A stretch of DNA of 64,000 bases from Holophagales bacterium. Its GTDB lineage: Bacteria; Acidobacteriota; Thermoanaerobaculia; Multivoradales; Multivoraceae. Positions 2,119 through 60,285 of the stretch are shown here, piece after piece (the stretch's first letter is position 1; each line of letters begins with the position of its first letter). A program made the position numbers and the translations under genes. The notes below the pieces were generated by a model. The model did no database searches. It saw only the letters and a list, made by a program, of their open reading frames with translations, and had not been told where the DNA came from. Where the stretch lies: contig VXVC01000004.1 in NCBI GenBank assembly GCA_009836625.1, positions 641,037 through 705,036 of the forward strand, given 5' to 3'.

Positions 2119-2146
2119 TTGACATCCTTCCAGCCCGTCATATAGT
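2119..2146 (+). promoter_or_regulatory. Sigma70-like promoter: TTGACA - 16 nt - TATAGT, ~45 nt upstream of the receptor gene start
   Basis: Consensus -35 and -10 hexamers with canonical spacing. A near-identical arrangement lies upstream of the third paralog (6012-6039), and the 5'UTR box GATCCGAGGAGRAGCTC-ATGAAGCGACTCGC is shared. Confidence 0.6.
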
Positions 2147-2189
2147 GCCCTTCTCGCTTTCCCTACAACTTGATCCGAGGAGAAGCTCT

Positions 2190-38992: not shown

Positions 38993-38993
38993 A

Positions 38994-40130
38994 GTGGCGG
39001 ACGACGTCACGATCACCCTCGGGGTCGAGGAGGAACTGTTCCTCGTCGACCCCGACTCGCGCGACCTCCTCAACGACCCCGATCCGCGCATCTTCGAAGC
39101 CTGCGGCGAAGCCGCGGGCGGCCAGAAGATCGTCCACGAGTTCCTTCGCTCCCAGATCGAAACCAACACCGCCGTCCACGACTCCGTGGCCGGAGTGCGC
39201 GAGGGTCTGAAGGCGGCCCGCCGGCTCGTCGTCGAAGCGGCGCAAGCCCACGGCGCGGCGGTGATCGGCGCCTCAACCCATCCGTTCGCGGCCTGGGAGG
39301 CCCAGCTCCCGACGCCGAGGGACCGCTACCGCCAGTTCGCCTCGACCTACCAGGAGACGGTCCGGCGCCTGGTTATCTGCGGCATGCACGTCCACGCCGG
39401 CTTCGGCGACTTCGACACACGCATCCGCGTGATGACCGCGCTCCGGCGCTACCTGCCCCTGTTCATTGGCCTCTCCGCCTCATCGCCCTTCAGCGAGGGC
39501 CGCGAGTCCGGATTCAAGTGCAACCGGCTGAATCTCTTCGAGGCGATGCCCCGGACCAGCATTCCCGGGCCGCTCGACTCCCGCGCGGAGTACGAGGCGC
39601 TGCTCGGCGAGTACCAGCGCATGGCCTTCATCACGGACGGCAGCGAGATCTGGTGGGACATCCGGCCCTCCCACAAGTTCCCCACCGTGGAGCTGCGGAT
39701 CTGCGACACCTGTCCGGCGATAGAGGACGCGATGTGCATCGTCGCCCTCTACGCGTCCCTCATCCGGACGCTGGCGCGGCGTGACCGGGAGGGCGCCCTT
39801 CCTCCCGAACCGCCGACCGAGATCATCGTCGAGAACAAGTGGCTGGCGCAGCGCTACGGCATGCTGGCCTTCCTGGGCGACACCCGGCGCGGCGGCCGCA
39901 TCGACATCGCCGACGAACTGCAGGAACTCGTCGACGAACTCGCCGAAGACGCCAGCGCCCTCGGCTGCGAGCGGGAGCTACGGCACTGCCTGAAGATCGT
40001 GCGCGAAGGCTCGAGCGCCGACCGGCAGCTCGACCTCTACCGGCTGCGTCTCGTCGAGGGAGCTGCCAAGGACGAGGCCCTGCGGGAGGTCGTCGATCTG
40101 CTCGTGTCGGAGACCGGCGGGAACCTCTAG
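38994..40130 (+). CDS. ybdK: Carboxylate-amine ligase, YbdK / glutamate-cysteine ligase family 2
   Basis: N-terminal TLGVEEELFLVD, plus VHAGFGD and WWDIRPSHKFPTVELRICD, the canonical GCS2 blocks. Starts 1 nt after the symporter stop. Confidence 0.8.
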   Translation: MADDVTITLGVEEELFLVDPDSRDLLNDPDPRIFEACGEAAGGQKIVHEFLRSQIETNTAVHDSVAGVREGLKAARRLVVEAAQAHGAAVIGASTHPFAAWEAQLPTPRDRYRQFASTYQETVRRLVICGMHVHAGFGDFDTRIRVMTALRRYLPLFIGLSASSPFSEGRESGFKCNRLNLFEAMPRTSIPGPLDSRAEYEALLGEYQRMAFITDGSEIWWDIRPSHKFPTVELRICDTCPAIEDAMCIVALYASLIRTLARRDREGALPPEPPTEIIVENKWLAQRYGMLAFLGDTRRGGRIDIADELQELVDELAEDASALGCERELRHCLKIVREGSSADRQLDLYRLRLVEGAAKDEALREVVDLLVSETGGNL

Positions 40131-44783: not shown

Positions 44784-45958
44784 CCCAACCCTTCGACCAG
44801 CCTCGTCAACTCCTGCCGCCCGAGGCGTACTTCGATTCCGGTTGGCTGAACCGCGAAGTCGACCGTCTGTTCGACCGCTCCTGGATCTGGGCCGCCACCG
44901 AGGAGGACCTGAAGGAACCGGGAGACTTCCGCGCCTGCCGCGCCATGAACCACTCCCTGTTCGTGCTCCGGGACGAGGCCGGAGAGCTCCAGGCCTTCCA
45001 CAACGTGTGCCGCCACCGCGGTTGCGAGATCCTCGAAGGCAGCGGCAACACAGGCTCGACAATCCGCTGCCCGTACCACCGCTGGACCTACGAGACGAAC
45101 GGCGCGCTGCACGGCGTGCCCAACGAAGCGGAGTGTTTCGGCGCCGTCCCCCGCGAGAGCTTCTCGCTCCATCGAGCCGCGGTCGGCGCCCATCGCGGCA
45201 TGGTCTACGTGAATCCGGATCCGGATCCGCCCGAGCCGTTCGACCGGTGGATCGCGGGGCTCGACGAGCACGCCTGGCCGCATGACCTGGGCGACGGCAC
45301 GTTGAGCTACGCCGGCGACGTGCGCTACGAGATGCACTGCAACTGGAAGGTCTTCTACGAGAACGCGATCGACGGCTACCACCTCGGCTACCTGCACAAC
45401 AAGACCCTGGGCGCCGCCTACCCGGATCGCAACATCTGTCATCCGGTCGGCCGCCACACGGTCTGGTACTCGACCGAACGGGAAGGCGATCCGCAGTCAA
45501 CCACCGTGCTGTCGGCGGAGATGGCGGACGCCGCCGGCGCCACCCGCCTGCCGGGTCACGAGGAGAGCTTCTATCCGGGCGTGGTCATGCTCTTCCCGCT
45601 GACCATCCTCTCGCCGAGCCCCTGGGGCTTCCACGTCTCGCTGCTGGAACCGAAGACCCCGGATCTCACGACCATGTGGACGCAGAGCTGGACGACGTAC
45701 GGATCCGCCTCACGCGAAGAAGCGGGCAAGGCGCCTACGCTGATCAGCCTGGCCAACCAGGAGGGACACCCGATGGAGTCGGGCAACTTCCAGCTCGAGG
45801 ACATGTGGATCTGCGAGATGATCCAGCGCAACCTGCGCTCCCCGAAGTTCAAAGTCGGGCGACTGGCCGCCGGCTTCGGGGCCGAATCGCCCATCATGCA
45901 CTTCCAGCAAAGCGTGCTCGACTACCTGAACGGCGACTCCGGCGGGAGCGGCGCCTGA
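44780..45958 (+). CDS. Rieske non-heme iron aromatic-ring-hydroxylating oxygenase, alpha subunit
   Basis: Rieske [2Fe-2S] motif CRHRGCEI...CPYHRW and the mononuclear Fe site DGYHLGYLH. The ATG overlaps the MFS stop (ATGA). Confidence 0.8.
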   Translation: MTQPFDQPRQLLPPEAYFDSGWLNREVDRLFDRSWIWAATEEDLKEPGDFRACRAMNHSLFVLRDEAGELQAFHNVCRHRGCEILEGSGNTGSTIRCPYHRWTYETNGALHGVPNEAECFGAVPRESFSLHRAAVGAHRGMVYVNPDPDPPEPFDRWIAGLDEHAWPHDLGDGTLSYAGDVRYEMHCNWKVFYENAIDGYHLGYLHNKTLGAAYPDRNICHPVGRHTVWYSTEREGDPQSTTVLSAEMADAAGATRLPGHEESFYPGVVMLFPLTILSPSPWGFHVSLLEPKTPDLTTMWTQSWTTYGSASREEAGKAPTLISLANQEGHPMESGNFQLEDMWICEMIQRNLRSPKFKVGRLAAGFGAESPIMHFQQSVLDYLNGDSGGSGA

Positions 45959-47088
45959 TGGAGTTCGTCATCCTCGCCATCCCCTACATGCGGCGCCTGG
46001 GCGAACAGGTGGGCCGCGCGGGATCGGACCCGAACCGGTTCCAGGCGCTGATGGCGAATCTCCGGACGCAGATGACGTTCGCCGAGTCGGTCGGCTACAC
46101 GGGCTTCTGCATGACCGAGCAGCACCTGCAGGTGGAGGGAATCGAGACGACGACGAATCCGCTGTTCTGGGACTACTTCGTCGCCCAGCACACGGAGCGG
46201 ATGCGCGTCGGCCAGCTCGGCATGAACCTGACCGCCGTCAACCCGATTCAGTTGGCCGAGAACCTGGCGATGCTCGACCACTTCACCGGCGGCCGCATGT
46301 TCGCAGGCTTCACGCGGGGCAACACGCCCCGCTGGACGGGCACCTTCGGCCAGCACATCGGGGTCACGGCGACGCACTCCGACAAGTCCGAGGTGGACCG
46401 ACGCAACCGCCGCGCGTTCGAGGAGAACTGGCGACTCGTGAAGGCGCTCTGGACCCAGGAGGTGGTGAGCATCTCGGGCGAGTTCTGGCAGGCGCCGCCG
46501 GCGATGGACTGGACCTTCGCACCCACGAGCGAATGGTCGCCCGGTTCGGTCTCCAATGACGGCACGCTGAAGGAGATCGGGATCGTTCCCCGCCCGCTGC
46601 AGAACGACCCCCACCCGCCGGTCTACGCGCCGTTCAGCTACAGCATGGGGACCGCGAAGTTCTGGGCCCGCGAGGGCGGCAAGATGATGGGCATGTTCAA
46701 CGAGTCGAAGGAGGAGTTCATCCCCCTGACCCTGGACGTATGCCTGGAGGAAGCCCTCCAGCACGGACGGATCATCGGCCCCAACGACATGCTCGCGCTG
46801 GGCGGACACCTGATCATGGGACGGAATCCCGCCGAGACGAAGAAGCTCTACGAGGGCTTCGAGTGGCTGTTCAACTTCGCCTACAACGCCCCTCCCTACC
46901 ACGTACCGATGGGCCGGATGTGGATGGGGTCGCGCCAGCAGGTGCTCGACCACGTGGGGCGGCTCAACGAGACCTTCGGCATCGACGAGTTCTTCCTGTG
47001 GCACCACGTCGGCTGGTTCGAGCAGGACGAGGAGCTGGCGATGCTCCACGAGTTCGCGGAGGGGGTCATCGGCCCCCTTTCCTCGTGA
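45958..47088 (+). CDS. LLM-class flavin-dependent oxidoreductase (luciferase-like monooxygenase)
   Basis: Bacterial-luciferase-fold blocks (TEQHLQVEGIETTTNPL, MLDHFTGGRMFAGFTRG). The ATG overlaps the Rieske stop by 1 nt (TGATG). Confidence 0.7.
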   Translation: MEFVILAIPYMRRLGEQVGRAGSDPNRFQALMANLRTQMTFAESVGYTGFCMTEQHLQVEGIETTTNPLFWDYFVAQHTERMRVGQLGMNLTAVNPIQLAENLAMLDHFTGGRMFAGFTRGNTPRWTGTFGQHIGVTATHSDKSEVDRRNRRAFEENWRLVKALWTQEVVSISGEFWQAPPAMDWTFAPTSEWSPGSVSNDGTLKEIGIVPRPLQNDPHPPVYAPFSYSMGTAKFWAREGGKMMGMFNESKEEFIPLTLDVCLEEALQHGRIIGPNDMLALGGHLIMGRNPAETKKLYEGFEWLFNFAYNAPPYHVPMGRMWMGSRQQVLDHVGRLNETFGIDEFFLWHHVGWFEQDEELAMLHEFAEGVIGPLSS

Positions 47089-47101: not shown

Positions 47102-48304
47102 TCAGAGTTCGGCGGCGACCGGCGAACCGTCGCTCAGGCTGTCGCTCGGATAGACCACGACCTGCTCGCCGGGTTCGAGGCCGCCGAGAACCTGGGCTTC
47201 CTGCGCGTTCCGCTCACCGACCTCGATCGTCCGGAGGGCGGCCCGGCCGCGCTCGACCGCGAAGACCGCCCAGTTCTCGTCGCGCCGGAAGAGCGCACCC
47301 GTCGGCGCCTTCAGTTCGTCCCCGCTCTCCCAGACGACGACCCGGGTTTCAACCCGGAATCCGTCGCCGAGACCGGCCCAGACAGCAGGCGGATCGACGA
47401 TGTCGATGACCACGTTCACGCGCTGCTCCTCGACGCCGAGCGCCGAGATCTTCGTGAAGCCCGAGGGTTCCACCCGCCGCAACCGGCCCAGCAACGGGCG
47501 GTCGCCGCCCCAGCGATCGATCAGCACGCGCTGACCCGACCGCATCCGGACGGCGTCCTTCGACAGATAGTCCGTGACCACCTCGATCTGCGCCGGATCG
47601 CCAACTTCGAGCAGGGCTTCGCCGGCCGGCACGACGGACTCGCTTTCGCGCACGCGACGCAGCACGACGCCCGAAACGGGCGACACGATCCGGATCGTCG
47701 CCCCATTCAGGTCGTCCGCGCTCTCGGCGCTGAACTGCAGCAGACGGACCCGCGCCGCCTGCAACTCGCTGCGGGCCGTGCGCACCGCGTACTCCGCCGC
47801 TTCCAGCGCTTCCTGCCGGGTGTCGAGGTCGAGCTGGGCACTTTCCATCGTCTCGACCGAAACGATTCCCTCCTGGCTGAGCCGCAGGTAGCGCCCCGCC
47901 TCCGAGCGCGAGTAGACGAGTTCAGCCGCCGCGCGCTCGTAGTGCGCCTCGGCCTGACCGAGCGCGGCGGTCGCGGTCTGCACCACCGCCTCCGCCTCGG
48001 CTCGGCTACGGGCGTCGAGGAGCACCGGGGCCGAGGGCAGGAAGACCGCGAGCACCGTCTCGCCCGCGACCACCGCGTCGCCGGGCTCGAGTTCGATCCG
48101 CAGGACCCGGCCGGCGAGCGGCGCCGAGATGACGAACCGATCCCGGACCCTCGTCTCGCCCTCGTCGTCGACGGTCACCTGGAGCGGACCTCGCGCCACC
48201 TCGGCCAGTTCCGCCGCGACCGGCTGCGGGCGCGTGCCGAGGATCACGGCGGCCGCCGCCACAACCAGCCCCACGCCCCACAACACCCAGCGCCGCGTCT
48301 TCAT
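47102..48304 (-). CDS. Efflux transporter periplasmic adaptor (membrane-fusion protein, HlyD/MacA-like)
   Basis: N-terminal TM anchor, coiled-coil hairpin (Ala/Glu/Arg-rich 140-220) and barrel-sandwich and beta-barrel domains. Last gene of the minus-strand array. Confidence 0.8.
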   Translation of the reverse strand: MKTRRWVLWGVGLVVAAAAVILGTRPQPVAAELAEVARGPLQVTVDDEGETRVRDRFVISAPLAGRVLRIELEPGDAVVAGETVLAVFLPSAPVLLDARSRAEAEAVVQTATAALGQAEAHYERAAAELVYSRSEAGRYLRLSQEGIVSVETMESAQLDLDTRQEALEAAEYAVRTARSELQAARVRLLQFSAESADDLNGATIRIVSPVSGVVLRRVRESESVVPAGEALLEVGDPAQIEVVTDYLSKDAVRMRSGQRVLIDRWGGDRPLLGRLRRVEPSGFTKISALGVEEQRVNVVIDIVDPPAVWAGLGDGFRVETRVVVWESGDELKAPTGALFRRDENWAVFAVERGRAALRTIEVGERNAQEAQVLGGLEPGEQVVVYPSDSLSDGSPVAAEL

Positions 48305-48319
48305 CGTCTTCCTTCTCTC

Positions 48320-50689
48320 CTACTCGCGGGTCTTGAGCACCGCGACGAGATCGAGATCATGGAGCTTACGCCGCACCGTCCAGGCCGAGATGGCCATCGA
48401 CCCGAGAACGGTCGCGGCGGAAACCAGGAACGTGCTCGGCTCGACCACCACCGGCAGCCGAAACAGCTCGCTCTCGAAGACGCTCATCACGCCGGTGATC
48501 ATGGCGAAGCCGAGGAGCAGACCAAGCGGAATCGAGGCCAGAGTGAGAATCCCGAGTTCGCCCAGCAGGATCGAGGAGATCTCGCCGCGAGTGAAGCCGA
48601 TCACACGCAGGCTGGCGAGTTCGCGGCTGGTCTCGGACAGCGAGATCCGGGCCGTGTTGTAGATCACCCCGAAGGCGATGATCACCGCGAAGAGCAGGTT
48701 GACGTTCATCATCATGGCCATGTTGTCGAGCATGTAGGTCCGGATGCTCTGGAGCGCGGCACTGCGCAGCGTCGCCCCCGCCACCGCCGGCATCGCCTTC
48801 AGCAGACCGTACAGCCGTTCCTCGGCCAGCGTGTCGATCTTGAGCATCGCCCCGGTGATCGTGTCGTCGCGCCGCACCAGCCGACGGAGCGACTCCTGCT
48901 CCATGTACGCCGTCACGCCGAGCAGGTCGTCGACGGTGTCGGTCAGCACGACCTCGCGCACCGGCCTGGAGTCCTCCATGATCTCGACCACCAGCGTGTC
49001 CCCCGGCTCGACCCGCAGTTGCTCCGCCAGCAACGTGGACAGGACGAGACCCGGCCGGTCGAGCCGGATGGCGCGGTAGTCGAGATCGACCACGCGCCGC
49101 AACCTGGCGTCCGGCGCCAGCGCCTGGATCGCGGTCTGCTTCTGCAGGTGGCCGTTGCGCAACCGCGCCGCGACACCGTTCGTCGGCTCCACCTGGAGCA
49201 CGCCGGAGAGAGCCGCGAGTTCATGGACCGCCCTCCGTTCGACCGGTTCGAAGAAGCTCACCGACAGGTCCTGGCGCTGGACGATGTTGAACTGCACCTC
49301 CAGCAGTTCGTCCATCGAGTCGATCATCGCCCAGCCCACGACCATGATCGCGCCGGCGAAGGCGATGCCGACGATCGACAGGCCTGCGCGTACCGGGCGT
49401 CGCGACAGGTTGCGAAGCACCATCCGCGCCGGCTGCGACAGCCATCGCCGCACGCCCAGCCGTTCGAACAGGGACACCCGGAAAGTCTCGGGCGCCGCCG
49501 GGCGCATCGCTTCGGCGGGCGGCAGCGAGACGACGCTGCGCACCGCGCCCAGCGCGCCAACCGTCGCGGCGGCCAGGCTCACTCCGACGGCGATCAGAAT
49601 GCTCGACGCCGACACGTCGTAGATCAGGAACGGGAACCGGAAGTACTCCATGTAGAGACCGAGCATCGCTTCGGCCAGCAACAGGCCGGCGCCTATCCCG
49701 AGCAGGGTGCCGAAGGCCACCACGACGATGGCCCACTGCACGTAGTGGACACCGAGCCGGAGGTTCGAGTAGCCGAGAGCCTTGAGCGCCGCGATCTGTT
49801 CGCGCTGTACCGCGACCGTTCGCCGCAGAACCACGTTGAGCAGGAACGTGGCCACGGCGAGGAAGATCATGGGGACGAGGAGTCCCATGTTCTCGAGCTG
49901 GGACAACTCGTTCTGGAGGTACCAGTTCGAGGTCTGGTCGGCACGCGGAATCGCGCCCAGGCCCCCGTACGGATCAAGAATCGCGTCGAGTTCGACGATC
50001 ACCGCGCGCTCGAGGCTGGGCGAGCGGTCGACCAGCGTCAGGGCGACGTCGTTGAACCCACCCTCCATCTCGAACGCGGTGGCCAGATGCCGGCGGGTCA
50101 TCCACAGAAAGCCGAAGTGCTTCGGATCCGGGACCAATTCTCCCGGCCCGATGCCGTAGACGAACTCCGGGCTGAGCCCGACACCGACGATCTCCAGTGG
50201 CTGCCGGCGACCGTTGATGACAGCGAACAGGCGATCGCCCAGGTCGAGGCCGTGAGCCTCGGCGAAACGCTCGCCGACGAGGGCCTCCTCCGCCCGGTCC
50301 GGTTCCGGGAACCGCCCGCGGCGCAGCGCAACGTCGTTGAGCGCCGGCCGGCCGCGATCCGGCAGGGAGATCAGGCGTCCGTTGACCGGATCGGTGACTC
50401 CGGGCACGTCCAGCGAGACGCTCACAACCACCCGGGTCTGGACCTGCTTGACTCCCGGGATCGCCGCGATGCGCTCCTCGACCCAGTTGGGGACGCGCTT
50501 GGCGCCGGCGAACACGTCGGCGAAGGCGTAGCGGGTGTAGTAGGCGTCGCGGGTGGTCAGGAGCGAGCCGAACACTCCCTGCGCCATGACCAGCAGCGCG
50601 ATCCCCGACGAGACGACCAGCGCGATCGCCAGTACCTGGGACCGGACGTTCCAGAGGTCGCGCAGGAGTTTGCGGTCGAGGGCTTTCAT
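48320..50689 (-). CDS. ABC transporter permease with duplicated FtsX domains (MacB-like; ADOP-type, Acidobacterial duplicated orphan permease), 789 aa
   Basis: Two repeats each built of a TM helix, a large periplasmic domain and a 3-TM FtsX bundle. N-terminal [13 protein letters not shown] is typical. No fused ATPase. Confidence 0.8.
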
Positions 50690-50693
50690 CCTC

Positions 50694-51430
<737 letters not shown>

Positions 51431-51434
<4 letters not shown>

Positions 51435-53587
51435 GGCAGCTCGATGTCGGGGGGCGCCGCCGACAGCTCGACGATCATCTCCGTGAACTCGCCCGGCACC
51501 GTATCGACCCGGATCATGCCGCCGTGCTCGCGCACGATGTCGGCCGAGAGCGCCAGACCGAGGCCCGTGCCCTGGTCGGTCGGCTTGGTCGTGAAGAAGG
51601 GGTTGAAGATCTTGTCCACGATGTCCTGCGGGATTCCGTCGCCGTTGTCGCGGATCCGGACCTCGACGCCGTCGTCCATCCTTCGCGTCGTCACGGTGAG
51701 CGTCGGCTCGTAGGACTCATCGTCCGTCGTGAGCCGCTTTTCGTTCGTGGCGTAGCAGGCGTTGCCGACCAGGTTGAGGAACACGCGACCGACGTCCTGG
51801 GACACGACCTCCAGGGTGCCCAGGTCCGGATCGAAGTCCTTCTCGATGGTCAGGTTGAACTCCGAGTCGGAAGCTCGGGCGCTGTGGTAGGCGAGCCCGA
51901 TGTGCTCGTCGACCAGGCGGTTGATGTCGGCCTGTTCACGGCCAGCCGCGCCCCGGCCCATCTTCAGCATGTCGGTGACGATCCGGTTGGCCCGCTCGCC
52001 GTGGTTCTGGATCAGCTTCAGGTTCCCGCTCAGGTCCTCGAAGATCTCCCCGATTTCCTCCCGCTGGTCCTCGTTCAGGCTGCCGTCCTCGTTCTCCTTC
52101 ATGATCTCGTCGACCTCTTCGAGGAGTTCCGAGGACACCTCGGAGAAGTTCTTGACGAAGTTGAGAGGGTTCTTGATCTCGTGGGCGACGCCGGCCGTGA
52201 GCTCGCCCAGCGCCGCGAGCTTCTCGCGCATCACGATCTGGTCCTGGGCCTTCTGCAGATCGGCCAGCACGACCTCCAGCTCGTCGTTCTTCTCCTTCAG
52301 TTCGTCCGCTAGCTTCTCGACCAGGTTCAGTCGCTGCACTTCCAGCGCGTGACGGCGGAAGACCTCGAGGGCAGCCGCCATGTCCGCGACCTCGTCCTGG
52401 CCGCCGATGCCGATTTCGGCTTCCAGGTTGCCCTCCGCCATCTCCCGCATGCTGCTCGAAAGCGCCTCGAACCGGCGCACCAGCAGCCGTCCGACGAACA
52501 GCCAACCGATGAAGACCGCTCCGGCGATGCTCAGCACGTTGAGCGCCAGGAGCAGCGCCCGGCCGGTTCTGATGGCCTGGGACGCGGCGTCGGTCGCGGC
52601 ATCGGTACGTGCCTGCGAAGCGGCGACCAGACTCTCGACGTCGCCACCGAGTTCGACGGCCAGGTTCTGGTTCTCCTCCAGCAGCGCCTGCTGCCGGTCG
52701 AGCACGTCGACCTCTTGTCGCCTCAGGTCGAAGGCGGTACGACTCTTCGCCAGCATCTCGCCGAAGAGCGCTTCCAACCGGTCAGAGGTCGCGGTTTCGT
52801 CGATCGCGCTGAGGGCGCGCTCGATACTCGTCGCCGCCGACTCGTACCGCTCCTCGACCGGCTCGATCAGCGGCCGGTCGGTCAGCACCGCCAGACTCTT
52901 CAGGAGCTGATCGATGATCGTGACGTCCTGCTGAAGGCCGACCAGCACGCGGTAGCGGTCGATCTCCGGTTCAGAGAAGTGGACCTCACGGGACGCAGGG
53001 GCAAGCTCGAACGAGCGAAAGCCGGTCATGGCGTAGAACAGTTGGTTGTCGAGAGCAGGCACCAGGAGCACCTCGATCCGGCTGTGGAGCGACTCCAGTT
53101 CCGACCGCAGCGCCTCGCTCTCCGCGCCCAGTTCAAAGCCCTCCGCAACCGACTCCTGGATTGCCGCGATGTTGCCGATGAGCTCTCCGCCACGCGCCTG
53201 GATGCTCACGATCTCCGCGTCGCCGCCAAGGGACTCCTCGGACCCCATTCCCCTGCTCATCAGGTCCTCGAGTTCGCGCTCGAAGGCCCGTTGCGCGGGC
53301 GCCATCTCGACGACCGCCCGAGTCAACTCGTCCTGGTTCGCCGTCGCGGTCAGCCTGGGGCCCGCCGCCACCAGCGTTCCGCTGCCCTGGGCGACGCCGA
53401 AGGCGGCCGCGAGTTCAGGCACCGTTCCCTGGGTGACCCGGTTCTGCGAGTCGCCGACCTGAGCGAAGGCGAACAACGCCACGAGGCTGGCCGCGAGCGT
53501 CAGGGCGGCGGCGCCGCCGATGCCAACGTAGAGCTGCGTGGCGATCCTGAAGCGGGCCTCGGCCAGTCGTCGAAACCACGAGATCAT
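51431..53587 (-). CDS. Sensor histidine kinase with ~260-aa periplasmic domain, HAMP and HisKA/HATPase
   Basis: TM1 ([27 protein letters not shown]), a periplasmic region, then TM2 + HAMP. H-box [22 protein letters not shown], and N/G boxes at the C-terminus (GTGLGLALS). The real start is internal to the six-frame ORF 51431-54034, and the ATG overlaps the SBP stop (ATGA). Confidence 0.85.
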
Positions 53588-54828
53588 TGCTTCACCGCCG
53601 CCTCGAGACGCGTCGCTGGCCGATACCGACCCCGTTCGTCGATCACGGTCAGGAACACGGCGTCCGAACCCTGGTTGTCCCCGTCGCCGAACACGAGGCG
53701 GAAGCCGTTCAGGTCGATCGATCCGGCGTCGCGCAGAGTCTGAATGAAGCGGTCCCGATCGACCGCCGTCCCGCTGCGTTCGAGGGCCTCGATCACCAGA
53801 CGTCCGGCGAGGTAGCCCTCGAACGAGACGAAACCGGGCTCGGCCCCTGGGGTGTGGGCGCGCAGCGCGCGCCGGTAGGCGGTGGCGACCCTCGAGTTCC
53901 GCGCGCTCGGAAACGGCACGACCTGGGTGACGTAGACGCCGGCGCCGCGTGGGCCGAGTTCTTCCGCGAGGGCATTGCTGCCCACGAAGGACAGGGTCAT
54001 GAACACGGGATCCAGGCCGATGTGCCGGGCCCACGCGATCAGGCTCGCCACCGGTTGGTAGGCCCCCACGATGATGACGGCCTCGGGCCGCCCCACCTCG
54101 ATGTCGACGATGGCCGTCTTGACGGCGGTCGTGTTGCGCGGATAGACGCCGATCGCGACCGCCTCCATTCCCCGCCTGTCGAATGCGGCGCGAACGCCCG
54201 CCAGGCCGGCACGCCCGAAGGAATCGTTCTGGATGACCACCGCGATCCGCTCGATGCCCAGATCCCTCGTCAGTCGCTCCACCATCTCCTCCGTCTCCTG
54301 GGCGTAGGAGGCGCGGAGGTTGATCACATGCGGCTCGCTGCGGAGAAAGCCCGCGCCCGTGAACGGAGCGATGTACGGCACACCCGCCTCTTCGGCCACC
54401 GGCACCGCGGAGCGGGAGGTCGGCGTACCGACGCCGCCGACCAGCGCGAACACACCCTCGTCCTCGATCAGGCGGCGCGTGTTCGTGATCGCGGCCTCCG
54501 GCTCATAGCCGTCGTCCACCGTGACGAGTTCCAGGCGCCGGCCATGCACGCCGCCGGCATCGTTGGCCTCCTTGAACGCCGCCTGGATGCCGAGCCGCAT
54601 CCCTCTGCCCAGTTCGGCAGCCGGACCACTGAAGGCGGCGGACTGTCCGAACAGGATGCGCTCGGCCGAAACGCCCGGCGTCCCTTCCGGCCCGGTCGGC
54701 GGTGCCGCCGGCTGAGCCGCCAAAGGCGCCGCGGCGAGCAACGCCGCCGCGGCCCAGGCTGACGCCGTCAGAGCTATCTGAGCAGCATGTGCGCGCATCG
54801 CGACCGGCAGTCCCGTGCCGCGGTTCAA
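53584..54828 (-). CDS. Periplasmic substrate-binding protein, type I PBP (LivK/branched-chain-amino-acid-binding-like)
   Basis: Signal peptide. PBP1 blocks (ILFGQSAAFSGPAAELGRGMRLGIQAAF, VFALVGGVGTPTS). No cognate permease or ATPase of the Liv type is nearby; it is instead translationally coupled to the histidine kinase. The start is 54828 (ATGA overlap with the upstream gene) or 54798. Confidence 0.75.
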   Translation of the reverse strand: MNRGTGLPVAMRAHAAQIALTASAWAAAALLAAAPLAAQPAAPPTGPEGTPGVSAERILFGQSAAFSGPAAELGRGMRLGIQAAFKEANDAGGVHGRRLELVTVDDGYEPEAAITNTRRLIEDEGVFALVGGVGTPTSRSAVPVAEEAGVPYIAPFTGAGFLRSEPHVINLRASYAQETEEMVERLTRDLGIERIAVVIQNDSFGRAGLAGVRAAFDRRGMEAVAIGVYPRNTTAVKTAIVDIEVGRPEAVIIVGAYQPVASLIAWARHIGLDPVFMTLSFVGSNALAEELGPRGAGVYVTQVVPFPSARNSRVATAYRRALRAHTPGAEPGFVSFEGYLAGRLVIEALERSGTAVDRDRFIQTLRDAGSIDLNGFRLVFGDGDNQGSDAVFLTVIDERGRYRPATRLEAAVKQ

Positions 54829-55244
54829 CTCCGGCGCTTGACCATTGACACGTGGTTGCGGCCGCCCTCGCGGCTGTACGAAGTCTCGTCCATGAGGACC
54901 TTCACGAAGTGGACCCCCAGGCCGCCGATCTGCCGGTCCTGAACTTCCGCATCGAGGTCCGGCTCGGGAGCCTCGTGGAACGGATCGAACGCCTTCCCGC
55001 TGTCGCGAACCTCGATCCGGACCTCGTCGTCGCTCGATGTGACCTCGATCTCGATCTCGCTGCTGCCGGGCTCACCGCCGCCGTGACGCACGACGTTCGT
55101 CGCCACTTCCTCCAGACCGAGAACGATGGCGTAGGTCACATCCTGCGGCCAACCCTCCTCCCGGCCAAGCGCCTCGACGGCCTCCGAGACGCCAGGAAGC
55201 TCTTCGATCCGGTTCGGAACACGGAGGTGGAGGTTGGCGCTCAC
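54825..55244 (-). CDS. RsbW/SpoIIAB-like anti-sigma-factor serine kinase (GHKL ATPase), ~139 aa
   Basis: HATPase_c boxes: EEVATNVVRHGG (N box), VRDSGKAFDP and GGLGVHFV (G boxes). The GTG start overlaps the stop of the upstream RR-PP2C gene (GTGA). Only the C-terminal 139 aa of the six-frame ORF 54825-55883 are real. Confidence 0.75.
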   Translation of the reverse strand: MSANLHLRVPNRIEELPGVSEAVEALGREEGWPQDVTYAIVLGLEEVATNVVRHGGGEPGSSEIEIEVTSSDDEVRIEVRDSGKAFDPFHEAPEPDLDAEVQDRQIGGLGVHFVKVLMDETSYSREGGRNHVSMVKRRS

Positions 55245-56425
55245 TCGTCGGCGATGCGCAAGGTCATGCAAGTCAGATCGTCGAACTGCGGCGCTTCGCC
55301 GGCAAAGTCCTGCACGGCCTGCAGGATCATCTCGGCGGCTTCCCGGGCAGTTGGAGTCCGACCGTCGCCGAACAGACCCTGAAGCGACTCGAGGCCGAAC
55401 TCCTCGTTCGACACGTTGATCGCCTCGGTGACTCCGTCCGTGAAGAAGACGACGAGGTCTCCCGGGCTCAGTCGGACGCTGGCCTGCCCGTACTCGAAGC
55501 CGGGAATCGCCCCGAGGGCGAGGCCGCCCGTCAGTTCGAGTTCCTCCGAGCTCCCGTCGGGGTGGACCACCAGCGGAGGGTTGTGGCCGCCGTTGGAGAA
55601 GGTGAGCAGCCTGGTCGAGGGATCGTAGACGCCGTAGAAGACGGTGACGAACATCGCCGCGTCGTTCGTCTCGTTCAGCAGGTCGTTCACTTCGCGGAGG
55701 ACCGCCCCGGGATCCTCGACGCCGACTGCCGCGCCCTTGAGCAGCGTGCGGCTCGACATCATGAACAGGGCCGCCGGCACGCCCTTGTCCGACACGTCGG
55801 CTACCGCGAGCCCGATCCGCCCCGCATCGAGGTTGATCACGTCGAAGAAGTCCCCCCCGACGTTGCGTGCCGCGTGCATGCAACCGTAGACCTCACACCC
55901 GTCCACATGGGGGAACTTGTCCGGCAGGATGGACTGCTGGATCTTCGTCGCCACATCGAGCTCGTTCTGTATCGCCACCAGCTTGTCGCGCGAGGCGAGC
56001 GCGGCGCGCCACTCGTCGAGATGTCGCAACGTCCGCTCGATCGTGACCTCGAGGTCGGTGAAGTCGATCGGCTTGGTGACGAAGTCGAAGGCGCCGCGGT
56101 TCATGGCGGTGCGGATGTTCTCCATGTCGCCGTAGGCAGAAACGATGACCGAGCGGAGGTCCGTGTTCACCTCCGGGATCTGCTGCAGCAGGGTCAGGCC
56201 GTCCATCTTCGGCATATTGATGTCCGAGAGAACGATGTCGATGTCCTTCTTCTCCGTCAGGACCTCGAGCGCCTCGACGCCGTTGCCGGCGAACTCGAAA
56301 CCGTACTTGCCTCGGCGGATGTGGCGCCGCATGCGCTGGCGAACCAGCCGCTCCAGATCCGGCTCGTCGTCGACAACCAGGATCTTGTAGTCGGGTCTGT
56401 CCCGATCGCCCACCTGGACCGCCAC
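55241..56425 (-). CDS. Response-regulator receiver fused to PP2C/SpoIIE-type serine phosphatase (RsbU-like)
   Basis: Receiver domain: KILVVDDE, phospho-acceptor in IVLSDINMPKMDG, and TKP. PP2C domain: GGDFFDV, ADVSDKGVPAALFM, FTDGVTEA. GTG start. Confidence 0.85.
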   Translation of the reverse strand: MAVQVGDRDRPDYKILVVDDEPDLERLVRQRMRRHIRRGKYGFEFAGNGVEALEVLTEKKDIDIVLSDINMPKMDGLTLLQQIPEVNTDLRSVIVSAYGDMENIRTAMNRGAFDFVTKPIDFTDLEVTIERTLRHLDEWRAALASRDKLVAIQNELDVATKIQQSILPDKFPHVDGCEVYGCMHAARNVGGDFFDVINLDAGRIGLAVADVSDKGVPAALFMMSSRTLLKGAAVGVEDPGAVLREVNDLLNETNDAAMFVTVFYGVYDPSTRLLTFSNGGHNPPLVVHPDGSSEELELTGGLALGAIPGFEYGQASVRLSPGDLVVFFTDGVTEAINVSNEEFGLESLQGLFGDGRTPTAREAAEMILQAVQDFAGEAPQFDDLTCMTLRIADE

Positions 56426-56446
56426 CCCTTCCGCGCTCGAAAACCT

Positions 56447-56782
56447 CTACCCCGCCGCAGCCAGGGCGTCGGCCTGCGTGTCGTAGATCTGGATGATGCG
56501 GTTGAAGCCGCTGATCTCGAACACCGACTGGACGGGATCACTCAACGCGCAGAGAGAGATGCTCACGTTGCGCTGGCCGAGGGTCTTTGCGACCAGCAGG
56601 ACGACCCTCAGGCCGGCGCTGCTGATGTACGCGAGCTGGCCGAGGTCGACGACCACCGCCTGGACGTCCTCGCCGATCGCCCCCTGCAACTGGCGTTCAA
56701 AGTCCTGGGAGTTCGAGCTGTCGACGCGCCCCTCGACTTTGGCCACAAGAACCTTGTCGTGATGATCCACCTGGACGTTCAT
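56447..56782 (-). CDS. STAS-domain anti-sigma-factor antagonist (RsbV/SpoIIAA-like)
   Basis: 111 aa with the conserved phosphorylatable Ser context LAYISSAGLRVVL. The ATG overlaps the transglutaminase stop (ATGA). Confidence 0.8.
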   Translation of the reverse strand: MNVQVDHHDKVLVAKVEGRVDSSNSQDFERQLQGAIGEDVQAVVVDLGQLAYISSAGLRVVLLVAKTLGQRNVSISLCALSDPVQSVFEISGFNRIIQIYDTQADALAAAG

Positions 56783-57687
56783 ACTCTCTGCCTCCCGTTG
56801 CCGTTTCTTCCGCTAAGTCGTGCGCTGTCAACTGCATTCACTATCACATCAACCGCGATTTTCGCATCCCCGGCGCCCTGGAACACCCCCCTTGTTGGAG
56901 AAACGTCGGCATAGTCCCTGCCCGCGGCCACGCGGATGTGTCGCTGATCGCTGAACGTCGTGTTCGTTGGGTCGAAGCCGACCCAGCCGGCCCCCGGAAG
57001 CCAGCATTCTACCCAAGCGTGACTGGCGCCCGCCGTCACGCGTTCGCCGGCTCGTCCCGTGTTGTGGAGATAACCCGACACGTAGCGGGAGGGGACGCCC
57101 CAGGAGCGGCCGATGGCGATCATCAGGTGGGCATAGTCCTGGCACACGCCCCGACCCGATTCCAGCAGGTGCTCGATGGGCGAATCGGCCGCCGTGCTGC
57201 CCGGCTCGTACTCGAAGCGCTCGCGGATCCCGTCGGCCAGGCGGACCAGGCTCTCCATCGGACGTTCCTCCGGACGGAAGCCCTCGCTGCGGACGAAGCG
57301 CTCTAGCGCCAGGGACGGCCGCGCGAGCGCGCTGGGTTCGAGGAAGTGCCAGTACTCCGGCAATTGGCGCAGGCTCCGCAACTCCTCCCAGCCGCCGACC
57401 GCTTCCACGCTCGACGTCGCGGCGAGCTCCGCCCTGAACCGGGACGTGATCACGAGTTCCTCGTGCCGCCGATGGACGTTGAGAACGTGGCGGCGGTTGC
57501 CGAAGCAGTCCCGCTCCGGACTGAGGGAGGCGGCCGGGATCGTCTCGATCTCGAATCGCCGCACCCTCTGGCCCGATGTCCGGGCCGGCCGCAGGCAGAG
57601 CAGCAGAACGCAGCCGCGGACGCTGTCCGAGTACGCGTATCTCGTCCGATGCTCGACGTCGTAACGGAGCCGGCGGGTAGACGTCAC
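56779..57687 (-). CDS. Transglutaminase-like family protein (N-terminal Bact_transglu_N + TGc core)
   Basis: N-terminal LRYDVEHRTRYAYS (typical start of the transglutaminase N domain). Catalytic Cys in GRGVCQDYAHLMIAIGRSWGVPSRYVSGY, with downstream His (SHAWVECW) and Asp (GFDPTN). GTG start assumed, overlapping the alpha-E stop (GTGA). The six-frame ORF 56779-58374 is a frame artefact upstream of the start. Confidence 0.75.
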   Translation of the reverse strand: MTSTRRLRYDVEHRTRYAYSDSVRGCVLLLCLRPARTSGQRVRRFEIETIPAASLSPERDCFGNRRHVLNVHRRHEELVITSRFRAELAATSSVEAVGGWEELRSLRQLPEYWHFLEPSALARPSLALERFVRSEGFRPEERPMESLVRLADGIRERFEYEPGSTAADSPIEHLLESGRGVCQDYAHLMIAIGRSWGVPSRYVSGYLHNTGRAGERVTAGASHAWVECWLPGAGWVGFDPTNTTFSDQRHIRVAAGRDYADVSPTRGVFQGAGDAKIAVDVIVNAVDSARLSGRNGNGRQRV

Positions 57688-58646
57688 CGCAGCGGAGAAT
57701 CCTCGATCGCGTAGTCGACGAAGGCGCCGAGCACGGCGTCGTGCAGATCGCGGGCGGATCGATCGACCCGTTCCAGCAGTTCCTCGGGCGCTGAAGCTTC
57801 CGGCCAGTCGTAGAGGATGAGCGCTTCGGCCCGACCGGCCAACCGCCGGGCAGCGGCGTCGGCTTCGACGCCCGGCCCCCCGCCGAGGCCCCCGAGTTCC
57901 GTCGCCGCGGCCTGCACCGTGGCGAGCACGGATCCCGGCAGGGACGGATCGGCGACCAGCAGATCCAGCACCCGGTCCGGCTTCATCTCGATCCCGTGGA
58001 CGCGGCCGTAGGCCTCCAGAGCGTGGTGGGTGCGCAGCATGCTCGCCCAGCCAAGGGTTCGCCGCTCCGTCTGCCGACTCAGGTCGATCTGAGCCAGCAG
58101 CAGGGGCACCGCGAGCTGCGCTCGCTCGATGGCGCGGCCGAGGCGCATGAACCGCCAGGCAGCGCCGCGGTACATCGTCGCGTCCGCGACGCCGACGAAG
58201 TTGTGGATCTCGCTGCGGGTCTGTGCGTAGAAGACCTCCGGCGTCCTCCAGATGTCGACGGCCTCGAGATCCCGAATCCGCAGCCAGGCGGCGTTCAGGC
58301 AGGTCCACATCTCGCCGCTGATGCAATGACGCATCTGGCGGGCGTTCTCGCGCCCGCTCGCTATGGCGCTCCACACCGAATCAGGGTTCGAACGCTCGAA
58401 GGTCAGGTCGTCCGCCAGGGTGAAGGAGTCCGCCAGGGCGAACTCGTCCGCCTCCGGCAGGAACTGCTCGCCCGGTGGCGGCAACCGCTTCATGCAACGG
58501 TAGATCCGTTTCCAGCCGAAGTGGATCTCCTCGACCGAACGGTCGACCAGAAACTGCACCTGCAACTCCAGCAGGCGGCTCAGATAGCCGGCCCTGGCCA
58601 GGTACCGGGCCATCCAGTAGACGCCCTGGGCGCTGCGCGCGAGCAT
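57684..58646 (-). CDS. Alpha-E domain protein (DUF403)
   Basis: 320-aa all-helical protein beginning MLARSAQGVYWMARYLARAGYLSRLLE (canonical alpha-E N-terminus). Always found 3' of a circularly permuted ATP-grasp gene. The start codon shares 1 nt with the ATP-grasp stop. Confidence 0.75.
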   Translation of the reverse strand: MLARSAQGVYWMARYLARAGYLSRLLELQVQFLVDRSVEEIHFGWKRIYRCMKRLPPPGEQFLPEADEFALADSFTLADDLTFERSNPDSVWSAIASGRENARQMRHCISGEMWTCLNAAWLRIRDLEAVDIWRTPEVFYAQTRSEIHNFVGVADATMYRGAAWRFMRLGRAIERAQLAVPLLLAQIDLSRQTERRTLGWASMLRTHHALEAYGRVHGIEMKPDRVLDLLVADPSLPGSVLATVQAAATELGGLGGGPGVEADAAARRLAGRAEALILYDWPEASAPEELLERVDRSARDLHDAVLGAFVDYAIEDSPLR

Positions 58647-60088
58647 CAGAGGTCGACCACCCAGAGGTCCTTGCCGCCGCCGCCCTGGCTCGAATTCACG
58701 ACCAGGCTGCCCCTTCGCAGGGCGACCCGGCAGAACGCCCCGGGTACGATGCGGGTCTCGTTCCCGGTCAGCACGAAGGGCCGGAGATCGACGTGGCGCG
58801 GCTCCGCGTGGCCGTCGATCAGGCAGGGCGACCGCGACAGCGCCAGGGTGGGCTGCGAAATGAAGTCCGCGGGATCGGCCTGGAGCGTCTTCGCGTACTC
58901 GTCCCGCTCTTCCGGCGTCGAGTGCGGACCGACCAGCATGCCGTAGCCACCCGACTCGCCGACCCGCTTGACCACCAGGCGCTCCAGGTTGTCCAGCGTG
59001 TACTCGAGATCCTCCGGCCGCCGGCAGAGGCGGGTGTCGACGTTCTGGAGCAGGGGCTCCTCGCCCAGGTAGTAGCGCACCATGTCGGGCACGTAGGCGT
59101 AGACGCTCTTGTCGTCGGCCACGCCCGTTCCCGGAGCGTTGGCCAGGGCCACGTTGCCGCGCTTGAACGCGTTCATCAGGCCCGGAACGCCCAGCAAGGA
59201 GTCCTCGCGGAAGACGAGCGGGTCGAGGAAATCGTCGTCCACGCGTCGGTAGATCACGTCGACGCGCCGGAGGCCGGAAGTCGTCCGCATGTAGACGAAC
59301 CCGTCGTTGACCAGCAGGTCCTGCCCTTCGACGAGTTCGGCGCCGATCTCGTGAGCCAGGAACATGTGCTCGTAGAACGCCGAGTTGTAGGTGCCGGGAG
59401 TGAGCAAAGCCAGGCACGGATCCGGGCGGCCGCCGGGCGACAGCTCGCAGAGGGTCTGCCGCAACAGGCTGCCGTACTGCTCGACGTCCTGAACCCGGGA
59501 ACGCCGGTAGAGCCGGCGAAGGCCGGCCTTCACCGCCTTGCGATTCGCGATCATGTACGACACGCCCGAGGGCACGCGCAGGTTGTCCTCCAGCACCATG
59601 AAGCCCTCGTGCGTACGGACGATGTCCGTGCCGCAGATCGTCACCCAGACATCATTGGGCACATTGACTCCGCGCATCGCCAGCCGGTACTGCGGGCAGC
59701 CGAGGATGACGTCGGCGGGAATCACGCCGTCCCTGACGACGCGGCAGTCGCCGTAGACGTCGGCGAGGAACAGGTTGAGCGTCCGGATCCGCTGCACCAG
59801 ACCGGCTTCGAGTTCCCGCCACTCCGCCAGGGCGAGCAGGCGCGGCACGCAGTCGATCGGGATGATCCGTTCCTCCGCCTCCTCGTCGCCGTAGACGGTG
59901 AAGGTGATCCCCTCCTGGGAGAACGAGCGCGTCACCCGTTCCTGGATCGTGTTCAGGTCGTCGTCGGGCAGTTCCCTGAGCGCCTCGACGACCGCCCGGC
60001 AGTGATCGCGAGGCTCTCCCTCCCCGACGAACATCTCGTCGTAGATCGCAGGATCGAAGTCGTAGAGGCTGAAGTCCACCGGACCCAC
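58646..60088 (-). CDS. Circularly permuted type-2 ATP-grasp protein
   Basis: 480 aa with conserved CP-ATP-grasp blocks (GITFTVYG, RIIPIDCVPR, GTYNSAFYEHMFLAHEIGAELVEG, YRRVDDDFLDP, VALANAPGTGVADDKSVYAYVPDMV). GTG start; first gene of the array. Confidence 0.8.
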   Translation of the reverse strand: MGPVDFSLYDFDPAIYDEMFVGEGEPRDHCRAVVEALRELPDDDLNTIQERVTRSFSQEGITFTVYGDEEAEERIIPIDCVPRLLALAEWRELEAGLVQRIRTLNLFLADVYGDCRVVRDGVIPADVILGCPQYRLAMRGVNVPNDVWVTICGTDIVRTHEGFMVLEDNLRVPSGVSYMIANRKAVKAGLRRLYRRSRVQDVEQYGSLLRQTLCELSPGGRPDPCLALLTPGTYNSAFYEHMFLAHEIGAELVEGQDLLVNDGFVYMRTTSGLRRVDVIYRRVDDDFLDPLVFREDSLLGVPGLMNAFKRGNVALANAPGTGVADDKSVYAYVPDMVRYYLGEEPLLQNVDTRLCRRPEDLEYTLDNLERLVVKRVGESGGYGMLVGPHSTPEERDEYAKTLQADPADFISQPTLALSRSPCLIDGHAEPRHVDLRPFVLTGNETRIVPGAFCRVALRRGSLVVNSSQGGGGKDLWVVDL

Positions 60089-60285
60089 TCGAGCGGTTTG
60101 CCGAACGGGCGTATCCTACAGGTACAGAAAGAGTAAGCCCTCCTGCCGAAGGTTGCGGGCAGACTGGGGCGACCGGCCGCTTGGACGCCGCGGCCCTCCG
60201 CCCCGTATCATCCTGTAAGCCGCCGGCGAAGCGCCCCCCAAGACCCGCCGCGGTCGGACCTCAATTCACATCAAGGAGCACGAAG
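60089..60285. promoter_or_regulatory. Divergent promoter region between the 11-gene minus-strand array and the pilin-like gene
   Basis: This is the only sizeable non-coding gap flanking the array. It contains a locally AT-richer stretch (ACAGGTACAGAAAGAGTAAG) and RBS AAGGAG 8 nt before the pilin-like ATG. No -35/-10 could be assigned with confidence. Confidence 0.4.

Follow-up and report, generated by a model that had tools for sequence, protein, structure and literature searches.

An eleven-gene array in an acidobacterial genome as a probable lineage-specific concatenation of a cross-phylum partner-switching cassette, a recurrent amidoligase neighbour and an exporter

When eleven genes follow one another on the same strand with hardly any space between them, do they make up one functional unit or several that have been joined? 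The question is raised by the window analyzed here, a 64-kb stretch (64,000 nucleotides) of contig VXVC01000004.1 from a Holophagales bacterium (Acidobacteriota), in which positions 47102-60088 hold 11 consecutive open reading frames (ORFs), all of them co-directional on the minus strand (Table 1). An earlier note on this DNA had read them as a single functional unit made of four modules: the triad of a CP-ATP-grasp protein, an Alpha-E protein and a transglutaminase; a partner switch with a STAS protein, a PP2C phosphatase carrying a receiver domain and an RsbW-like kinase; a histidine kinase (HK) coupled to a secreted binding protein (SBP); and a MacAB-like exporter. The array itself is real. 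The same 11 genes have been called by an independent gene caller on the metagenome contigs ERZ23491828 and ERZ23491992 of ENA, which were found through an exact-match look-up of the receiver-phosphatase gene, and all the domains that the note had assigned were recovered with Pfam. We conclude with moderate confidence that three units have been joined to form it in this lineage; the core would be a nitrogen-linked partner switch that works without a sigma factor, and gating of the exporter by this switch is not supported. The main interest of the locus lies in the link, hinged on the STAS gene, of a conserved sensor cassette to an orphan enzyme system; the eleven-gene "super-operon" is of local interest only.

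We have compared the window with about 20 orthologous loci (designated below by L numbers), fetching 10 kb on each side and searching the flanks with all 11 window proteins. They represent 17 dereplicated cassette lineages, drawn from the matches listed in the scans. A genome-collection scan used an alignment of the receiver-phosphatase, and its patterns were receiver-domain motifs; around 65 of the 80 loci listed were unrelated receiver proteins and were reused as controls. A metagenome scan used a PP2C-only alignment with generic patterns; the orthologous loci among its matches were L086-L089, and all others were added to the controls. In total, the controls were 143 loci (1.77 Mb) with distant relatives of the PP2C or receiver domains.

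Five of the eleven genes were found together far outside the Acidobacteriota, in the order STAS, receiver-phosphatase, RsbW-like kinase, SBP of the Peripla_BP_6 family and HK with a TorS-like sensor. This order is kept in L003-L012, L015, L085, L089 and L166-L172, with the STAS gene placed elsewhere in a few of these loci (L003, L007 and L011). The hosts are Dehalococcoidia (L003, L004, L006, L008-L010), a metagenome-assembled genome (MAG) of Chloroflexota (L012), an alphaproteobacterium (L007), a gammaproteobacterium of the Azotimanducaceae (L005), a member of the Binatia (L011) and the actinomycetote Poriferisodalis (L015), and the same gene set is also present on L085, L089 and L168-L172. 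Identities to the window proteins were 54-70% for the receiver-phosphatase, 55-68% for the SBP and 44-57% for the HK. Copies of the receiver-phosphatase in species-representative genomes of other phyla were 57-66% identical, and identity was at least 66% in all of the 120 clusters listed. The nearest named relatives, both from Acidobacteriota MAGs, were 97% (ATP-grasp) and 86% (receiver-phosphatase) identical. The HK was co-conserved with the receiver-phosphatase in 16 of the 17 lineages. Loci with a PP2C only 30-47% identical often had STAS and RsbW-like genes as well, and never an SBP together with an HK. Because the five genes recur together and in order, while the distant-PP2C loci never pair SBP with HK, they form one conserved signalling cassette present in at least five phyla. 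Co-occurrence of the window's gene families in other genomes, which the earlier note had put forward as a check, is therefore found across phyla for the cassette and in five lineages for the triad or its ATP-grasp/Alpha-E pair; the exporter accompanies the cassette only in the lineage of the window.

A few observations on these loci are worth recording. In L013 (9593-11600, Dehalococcoidia) orthologous STAS, receiver-phosphatase and RsbW-like genes (57% identity) have no SBP or HK gene downstream, and the locus looks truncated or re-wired. Phage structural genes (terminase, capsid, portal) adjoin the cassette at 542-7864 of L168, and DDE transposases are found beside it in L085, L169, L170 and L007; the cassettes of L168 and L169 are the same and come from two contigs of a single sample. 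The phage and transposase flanks, together with the identity of 57-70% across phyla, suggest horizontal mobility of the cassette. Among the genomes there are sponge-associated names (Poriferisodalis for the cassette in L015, Poribacteria for a distant paralogue in L042), and many of the protein matches came from a few long-read metagenome projects of ENA. The cassette may have a habitat bias, or sampling alone may give that impression.

On the evidence of the sequences, the residues that a partner switch of this kind would use are intact, i.e., the STAS serine, the N, G1 and G2 boxes of the kinase, the receiver Asp and His469 of the HK. The STAS protein matched TIGR00377 with 81 bits (cutoff 53), and the serine motif YISSAGLR is kept in every cassette STAS orthologue and in nearly all of 32 aligned homologues. 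The acidic pocket, phospho-acceptor Asp and Lys of the receiver and the metal-binding Asp residues of the PP2C domain are invariant in 16 orthologues. The RsbW-like kinase reached 99.7 bits with HATPase_c_2 (cutoff 27.4) and has readable N-box, G1 and G2 motifs; its matches to the RsbW and SpoIIAB equivalog models were weak and below cutoff. The SBP starts, on inspection, with a signal-peptide-like segment, and among solved proteins its best match is 4kv7, which is annotated as "probable Leu/Ile/Val-binding protein" (E 5e-69). In the HK, two predicted membrane segments flank a periplasmic domain of about 300 aa that matched TorS_sensor_domain (PF21689, 32.3 bits, cutoff 27). The same protein aligned to positions 6-430 of the TorS model TIGR02956 (E 1e-45) with a whole-protein score far below the equivalog cutoff; its H-box histidine is His469, and it ends after the ATPase domain, with no receiver. 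As for the other modules, the ATP-grasp protein of the window matched CP_ATPgrasp_2 (E 1e-152), and the best NCBIfam matches of the ABC ATPase were LolD, DevA, YbbA and MacB, all below cutoff. No NCBIfam equivalog model was matched at cutoff by any of the 10 proteins scanned (all except the exporter adaptor).

What, then, is the triad doing next to this cassette? According to PMC6376114 and PMC5666114, both citing Iyer et al. 2009, genes for a CP-ATP-grasp protein, an Alpha-E protein, a transglutaminase and the proteasome-like Anbu form the Anbu operon, the function of which is unknown. The triad of the window has the same three genes in the same order, but with STAS as the fourth gene, and no proteasome-family match was obtained in the 64-kb window. 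Its relatives depart further from the Anbu operon, consisting of the pair without transglutaminase or having an ammonium transporter (Amt) gene between ATP-grasp and Alpha-E. We have found the ATP-grasp and Alpha-E genes adjoining the cassette in five lineages and in four layouts. In the window lineage they are upstream and co-directional, with the transglutaminase. In L085, L168/L169 and L172 they follow the cassette in the same direction, downstream of it and some 190 nt away, and the transglutaminase is lacking. They are divergent from the phosphatase gene in L011 and, as decayed fragments, in L005, an Azotimanducaceae MAG where a transglutaminase ORF directly adjoins two fragments of ATP-grasp (8371-9727, minus strand) and Alpha-E has been lost. 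In L003 they are convergent, with a second STAS gene in front, and the row reads STAS2, ATP-grasp, Amt, Alpha-E. The cassette-linked pairs of L003, L011, L085, L168 and L172 all lack the transglutaminase. The complementary situation is seen in L174, with ATP-grasp, Alpha-E, transglutaminase and STAS in the absence of PP2C or kinase within 10 kb; the STAS protein of this locus is 50% identical to that of the window, as near as the cassette STAS of other phyla, and has the YISSAGLR motif. On these gene maps STAS is the physical hinge between triad and cassette, and the triad is a recurrent but dispensable neighbour. Because the partner-switch genes and the triad are neighbours in five independent lineages and in four arrangements, a functional link between them is likely, to judge from genomic context.

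The second recurrent neighbour was Amt. Its gene is located directly upstream of STAS in L003 (8233-9459) and L010 (7920-9137), next to STAS in L007 (15681-17072), 13 nt after the HK gene in L171 (15078-16514) and after the HK gene, at the contig end, in L089. Besides, in two unrelated genomes it sits between ATP-grasp and Alpha-E, namely in L003 (16411-17841, minus strand) and in L173 (11466-12902, plus strand), the latter with an oligopeptide importer followed by ATP-grasp, Amt, Alpha-E and transglutaminase. Possibly this is a variant of the "Anbu-type" operon that recurs; we found no description of it. In prokaryotes, pairing of amtB with glnK is the rule; no PII/GlnK gene was found adjoining the Amt genes of cassette or triad in the neighbourhoods of these loci. 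As in the GlnK (PII)-AmtB pair, the gene of an ammonium transporter has beside it that of a small cytoplasmic signalling protein, but this neighbour is a STAS protein and not a PII protein, so that the likeness is an analogy only. A nitrogen theme fits these neighbourhoods, because the Anbu operon is reported to be induced by nitrogen starvation (PMC6376114) and the SBP is of an amino-acid type. In the limited literature that we searched there was no description of the cassette and nothing relevant to a link of STAS with the triad or with Amt. The window has another amide-bond and amino-acid theme at 37757-40130 (plus strand), where the gene of a sodium:dicarboxylate (glutamate-type) symporter is separated by 1 nt from that of a GCS2 carboxylate-amine ligase, which comes after it; genes for an aminopeptidase and an M20 peptidase are located nearby.

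To put numbers on these associations, the triad or the pair was near the cassette in 5/17 lineages versus 0/143 controls (Fisher p 7.5e-6), and Amt in 5/17 versus 1/143 (Fisher p 4e-5), both values being uncorrected for phylogeny or shared habitat. With controls of at least 15 kb only, the p values were 3.6e-4 for the triad and 1.8e-3 for Amt. One or the other was found in 9 of the 17 cassette lineages. In a clustering of ORFs taken from 17 loci, the core genes and ATP-grasp/Alpha-E were the sole families recurring across divergent loci, and when 148 flanking ORFs from 13 loci were counted by Pfam family, Ammonium_transp came joint first with MFS_1, with five members each.

Several points weigh against our reading. 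The remaining 8 of the 17 lineages have neither triad nor Amt within 10 kb, and because of this the link of the cassette to them has to be considered facultative. The controls are paralogous loci and not a phylogenetically corrected, genome-wide background, and with a small, MAG-rich sample, maybe from a common habitat, genes that hitch-hiked in horizontal transfers could make the counts of adjacency too high. A special clade of cassette-linked ATP-grasp proteins could be neither recognized nor dismissed, the family being too conserved for it (homologues with 77-79% identity are very common, and 73-75% is ordinary). Urea, amides and aromatic acids are also among the ligands of the Peripla_BP_6-type family, and the annotation of 4kv7 goes no further than "probable Leu/Ile/Val-binding". 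The overlap of the HK and ABC genes in the window, L083 and L166 indicates that co-expression of the exporter, and some functional tie within this lineage, may exist. Finally, the interactions, the phosphotransfer and the SBP ligand in the circuit described next are predictions.

The circuit that we propose would start with the SBP capturing a periplasmic small molecule, most likely, from the families involved, an amino-acid-like nitrogen compound. The loaded SBP would dock on the HK at its TorS-like sensor domain, in the way TorT does on TorS, and the HK would, like RsbK with RsbY (PMC9912610), determine the phosphorylation state of the receiver that the PP2C phosphatase carries. Phosphatase and RsbW-like kinase would then, as expected for their families, set the phosphorylation of the conserved STAS serine. 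The output would be a post-translational control, exerted by STAS or by the RsbW-like kinase, of nitrogen scavenging by the amidoligase pair and/or Amt. No sigma factor (Sigma70 domain) was detected among the predicted proteins of the 64-kb window, which agrees with the earlier note, nor in about 12 annotated orthologous loci. For this reason we infer an output other than a sigma factor; from the neighbourhoods, the ATP-grasp/Alpha-E enzymes and/or Amt, reached via STAS, appear more likely. We advance only tentatively the stronger proposal that STAS or the RsbW-like kinase directly binds and switches the CP-ATP-grasp/Alpha-E proteins and/or a GlnK-less Amt, which would make the cassette a sigma-independent, PII-like, SBP-driven circuit spread by horizontal gene transfer over at least five phyla.

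Each half of the proposed circuit has precedents. In the RsbK-RsbY-RsbV-RsbW-SigB pathway of Bacillus cereus, the components of which are co-encoded, a histidine kinase phosphorylates the receiver of a receiver-PP2C protein that acts on a STAS antagonist opposed by RsbW (PMC9912610, PMC4574943). The cassette has the same fusion of receiver and PP2C and a dedicated HK in the same cluster, but its HK is not a hybrid kinase and has a TorS-like periplasmic sensor and a secreted SBP of its own; no CHASE3 hybrid kinase, RsbM methyltransferase or SigB gene is found near the window cassette. Like an RsbV/RsbW/PP2C module it comprises STAS, GHKL serine kinase and PP2C proteins, but no cognate sigma gene is encoded along with it in the roughly 20 loci compared. 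On the input side, a binding-protein gene beside that of the kinase is seen in TorT-TorS and LuxP-LuxQ, and the HK sensor resembles that of TorS, but the SBP is LivJ-type (Peripla_BP_6) and not TorT-type, the HK lacks the receiver and HPt domain of TorS and the output is a PP2C phosphatase instead of a DNA-binding regulator. By analogy, the cassette might operate as the RsbKY-RsbVW pathway does, but with its input in the manner of TorT/TorS. Taken one by one, the four features that the earlier note had called unusual are ordinary; among them were both the missing sigma factor and the receiver on the phosphatase. The second is already known with a dedicated kinase, in RsbK/RsbY (PMC9912610), and as to the first, SypE/SypA of Vibrio fischeri (PMC10120452) and HsbR/HsbA of Pseudomonas (PMC6482189) are partner switches with an output other than an adjacent sigma factor. 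These share with the cassette a receiver-controlled set of STAS protein, serine kinase and PP2C. They differ from it in that SypE and HsbR fuse kinase, receiver and phosphatase and take their input from a phosphorelay, the cassette being split over two proteins with an SBP-coupled HK as input, and its candidate outputs (amidoligase, Amt) are also different. Partner switches with non-sigma outputs being established, the circuit would represent a new output and not a new principle.

The best alternative is a conventional switch, in which the RsbW-like kinase would hold a distant sigma factor or global regulator, and the triad and Amt would just be part of its regulon or respond to a common signal of nitrogen limitation, with no direct control at the protein level. 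Domains and motifs do match the classical RsbV/RsbW/PP2C modules, and a target encoded elsewhere would explain the 8 of 17 lineages that have neither neighbour, as well as a receiver-phosphatase that is far better conserved than its neighbourhood. It accounts less well for the lack of a sigma factor gene in the 64-kb window and the about 12 annotated orthologous loci, and for the relocation of the STAS gene to the triad or to Amt (L174, L003, L007, L010), a behaviour more typical of physical partners than of regulon members. We consider this explanation rather unlikely.

A mobile island with no functional meaning, its triad, Amt and exporter being passengers or chance neighbours, would agree with the transposases or phage genes flanking the cassette in L085, L168, L169, L170 and L007 and with the identity of 57-70% across phyla, which suggests horizontal transfer. 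But chance would hardly bring back the same two families in varied orientations and positions when a single Amt is all that the 143 controls contain of them, nor twice, in unrelated contexts, place Amt between ATP-grasp and Alpha-E. Moreover, the G+C content of the array (0.665-0.68) is the same as in the rest of the window (about 68%), with no compositional break. This makes the passenger explanation improbable.

The exporter behaves differently from triad and Amt. The window lineage consists of five loci with common flanks (NosD, hydrolase, NIPSNAP and N_methyl genes). All 11 genes are present with the same synteny in the window, L083 and L175, and the exporter follows the HK gene in all five loci. 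In favour of a single unit are also the co-directional, tightly packed genes and the codon overlaps between transglutaminase and STAS and between HK and ABC in the window. But L084 and L166 have cassette and exporter between the same flanks with no triad, the STAS gene coming directly after the divergent N_methyl gene. Outside this clade the exporter was absent in 12 cassette lineages of other phyla, no counterpart of the FtsX permease and the membrane-fusion protein (MFP) being found beside the cassette in any locus besides L083, L084, L166 and L175, and no exporter was found with the triads sampled elsewhere (L173, L174, L176). The ABC genes near other cassettes turned out to be other systems, which discards exporters as recurrent neighbours: RTX type I secretion with ABC, HlyD and OEP proteins in L011, ZnuABC in L006 and UvrA in L015.

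The junctions tell the same story. Conserved overlaps had been proposed in the earlier note as a decisive sign of unity, but those at the module boundaries drift and those within the cassette are kept, which delimits three blocks. The spacing between transglutaminase and STAS is -4 nt in the window, -17 in L083 and +25 in L175 (L166 and L084 having no triad), and between HK and ABC it is -4 or -1 in the window, -4 in L083, +77 in L175, -1 in L166 and +224 in L084. In contrast, the 4-nt overlap of SBP and HK is kept in 5/5 loci of the lineage, and that of receiver-phosphatase and RsbW-like kinase in 4/5. We conclude from the comparison of loci that the association of exporter and cassette is confined to this acidobacterial lineage, where the two are probably co-transcribed; gating of the exporter by the switch, or export of a triad product, is not supported by the comparative data. 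Of the single unit in the earlier note, the link between partner switch and triad stands as likely, and the exporter part and the obligatory union of four modules do not. That all 11 genes serve to make a peptide-like product and to export it through an ABC pump gated by the switch and a periplasmic ligand is very improbable.

Structurally, the exporter resembles MacAB-TolC and YbbAP-type systems in its LolD/MacB-type ATPase, its FtsX-fold permease with MacB-like periplasmic domains and its MFP. It differs from MacB, where the ATPase is fused to a four-helix FtsX, in having a separate ATPase of 245 aa and a double FtsX of 789 aa. The HK and ABC genes are not a Bce-type module either, since the HK has its periplasmic domain of about 300 aa and an SBP, and the Bce kinase has no such domain and goes with a ten-helix FtsX permease. 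No TolC-like or OEP-domain protein was found among the predicted proteins of the 64-kb window, in agreement with the earlier note, which considered this lack unusual. This says little, because in E. coli, too, tolC is located apart from macAB.

Few bacterial enzyme systems without a known substrate are as widespread as the one encoded by the CP-ATP-grasp/Alpha-E/transglutaminase genes, and the structural work on Anbu describes every hypothesis on the genes of its operon as unconfirmed (PMC6376114). With the loci described here the triad gains a candidate protein partner, the phosphorylatable STAS that travels alongside, and a physiological context, given by the Amt in or beside its genes and an upstream sensor with an amino-acid-type SBP. 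A direct switching by STAS and its kinase, if true, would be the first known regulator of these orphan "Anbu-operon" enzymes. The pieces being small soluble proteins, the predictions are directly testable.

The boundaries of the array are clear (Table 1). Upstream there is the divergent, pilin-like N_methyl gene and downstream a convergent gene for a luciferase-like monooxygenase, of which the minus-strand ORF 45922-47049 is a shadow. The earlier note was right in describing all the junctions as overlapping or nearly abutting. ATP-grasp and Alpha-E have 1 nt in common (TGATG), Alpha-E and transglutaminase overlap by GTGA, transglutaminase and STAS by ATGA, receiver-phosphatase and RsbW-like kinase by GTGA, and SBP and HK by ATGA. 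The gaps are of 21 nt between STAS and receiver-phosphatase, 4 nt between ABC and FtsX and 15 nt between FtsX and MFP. Two junctions, given as ATGA in that note, are different: RsbW-like kinase and SBP meet at TTGA, which becomes a 26-nt gap with the SBP start at ATG 54798 (the choice of the gene caller), and HK and ABC at GTGATG, which is either a GTGA overlap or an overlap of 1 nt.

Table 1. Genes of the array, listed from the first to the last in the direction of reading, and the intergenic region in front of them.
Feature	Coordinates	Strand	Details
CP-ATP-grasp amidoligase, 477-480 aa	58646..60088	-	Start GTG 60079 or GTG 60088
Alpha-E protein, 320 aa	57684..58646	-	Pfam Alpha-E E 2e-58; family that usually accompanies the CP-ATP-grasp
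Transglutaminase-like cysteine protease/amidase, 302 aa	56779..57687	-	Transglut_core E 5e-27, Bact_transglu_N E 5e-21
Single-domain STAS protein, anti-sigma-factor-antagonist type, 111 aa	56447..56782	-	Pfam STAS E 2e-20
Receiver-PP2C (SpoIIE-type) phosphatase, 394 aa	55241..56425	-	Response_reg E 8e-25, SpoIIE E 2e-51
RsbW/SpoIIAB-like serine kinase, 139 aa	54825..55244	-	HATPase_c_2 E 2e-28
Secreted LivJ-type binding protein (SBP), 404-414 aa	53584..54828	-	Peripla_BP_6 E 4e-65
Membrane histidine kinase (HK), 718 aa	51431..53587	-	TorS_sensor_domain, HAMP, HisKA, HATPase_c
ABC ATPase, LolD/DevA/MacB type, 245 aa	50694..51434	-	ABC_tran E 3e-35
Fused double FtsX permease, 789 aa	48320..50689	-	FtsX in 2 stretches, MacB_PCD in 2 stretches
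Membrane-fusion (HlyD/YknX-type) adaptor (MFP), 400 aa	47102..48304	-	HlyD_3, HlyD_D23; precomputed annotation adds YknX_C
Intergenic region common to the array and the divergent N_methyl gene	60089..60285	.	Only promoter-sized gap

The intergenic region in front of the array is, as the earlier note had stated, the only gap of the size of a promoter. Internal promoters or terminators, which that note had named as able to split the array, were searched for with a consensus scan, a weak test for Acidobacteriota, and no such sites appeared above shuffle expectation. We have also aligned the upstream regions of the five loci of the lineage looking for a common array promoter. The only intergenic part kept in all five, triad present or not, is the block 60182-60211 (plus strand), with a -35/-10-like pair (TGGACG, 18 nt, TATCAT) that faces the N_methyl gene, and because this sole conserved block points away from the array, the promoter of the latter cannot be inferred from the alignment; the array-proximal part differs between loci with and without the triad.

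Other genes of the window deserve mention. Two adjacent proteins of about 1240 aa (2145-5894 and 6080-9760, plus strand) combine CarboxypepD_reg with an outer-membrane beta-barrel and are followed by FG-GAP/ASPIC and TPR proteins. A PSCyt1/PSCyt2/PSD1 protein (DUF1549/DUF1553, "planctomycete cytochrome c") is encoded at 14306-16630 (plus strand) of this acidobacterial contig. Tandem paralogues of about 1000 aa each are located at 18464-21436 and 21443-24481 (plus strand), with a C-terminal VWA_2 as their only recognized domain.

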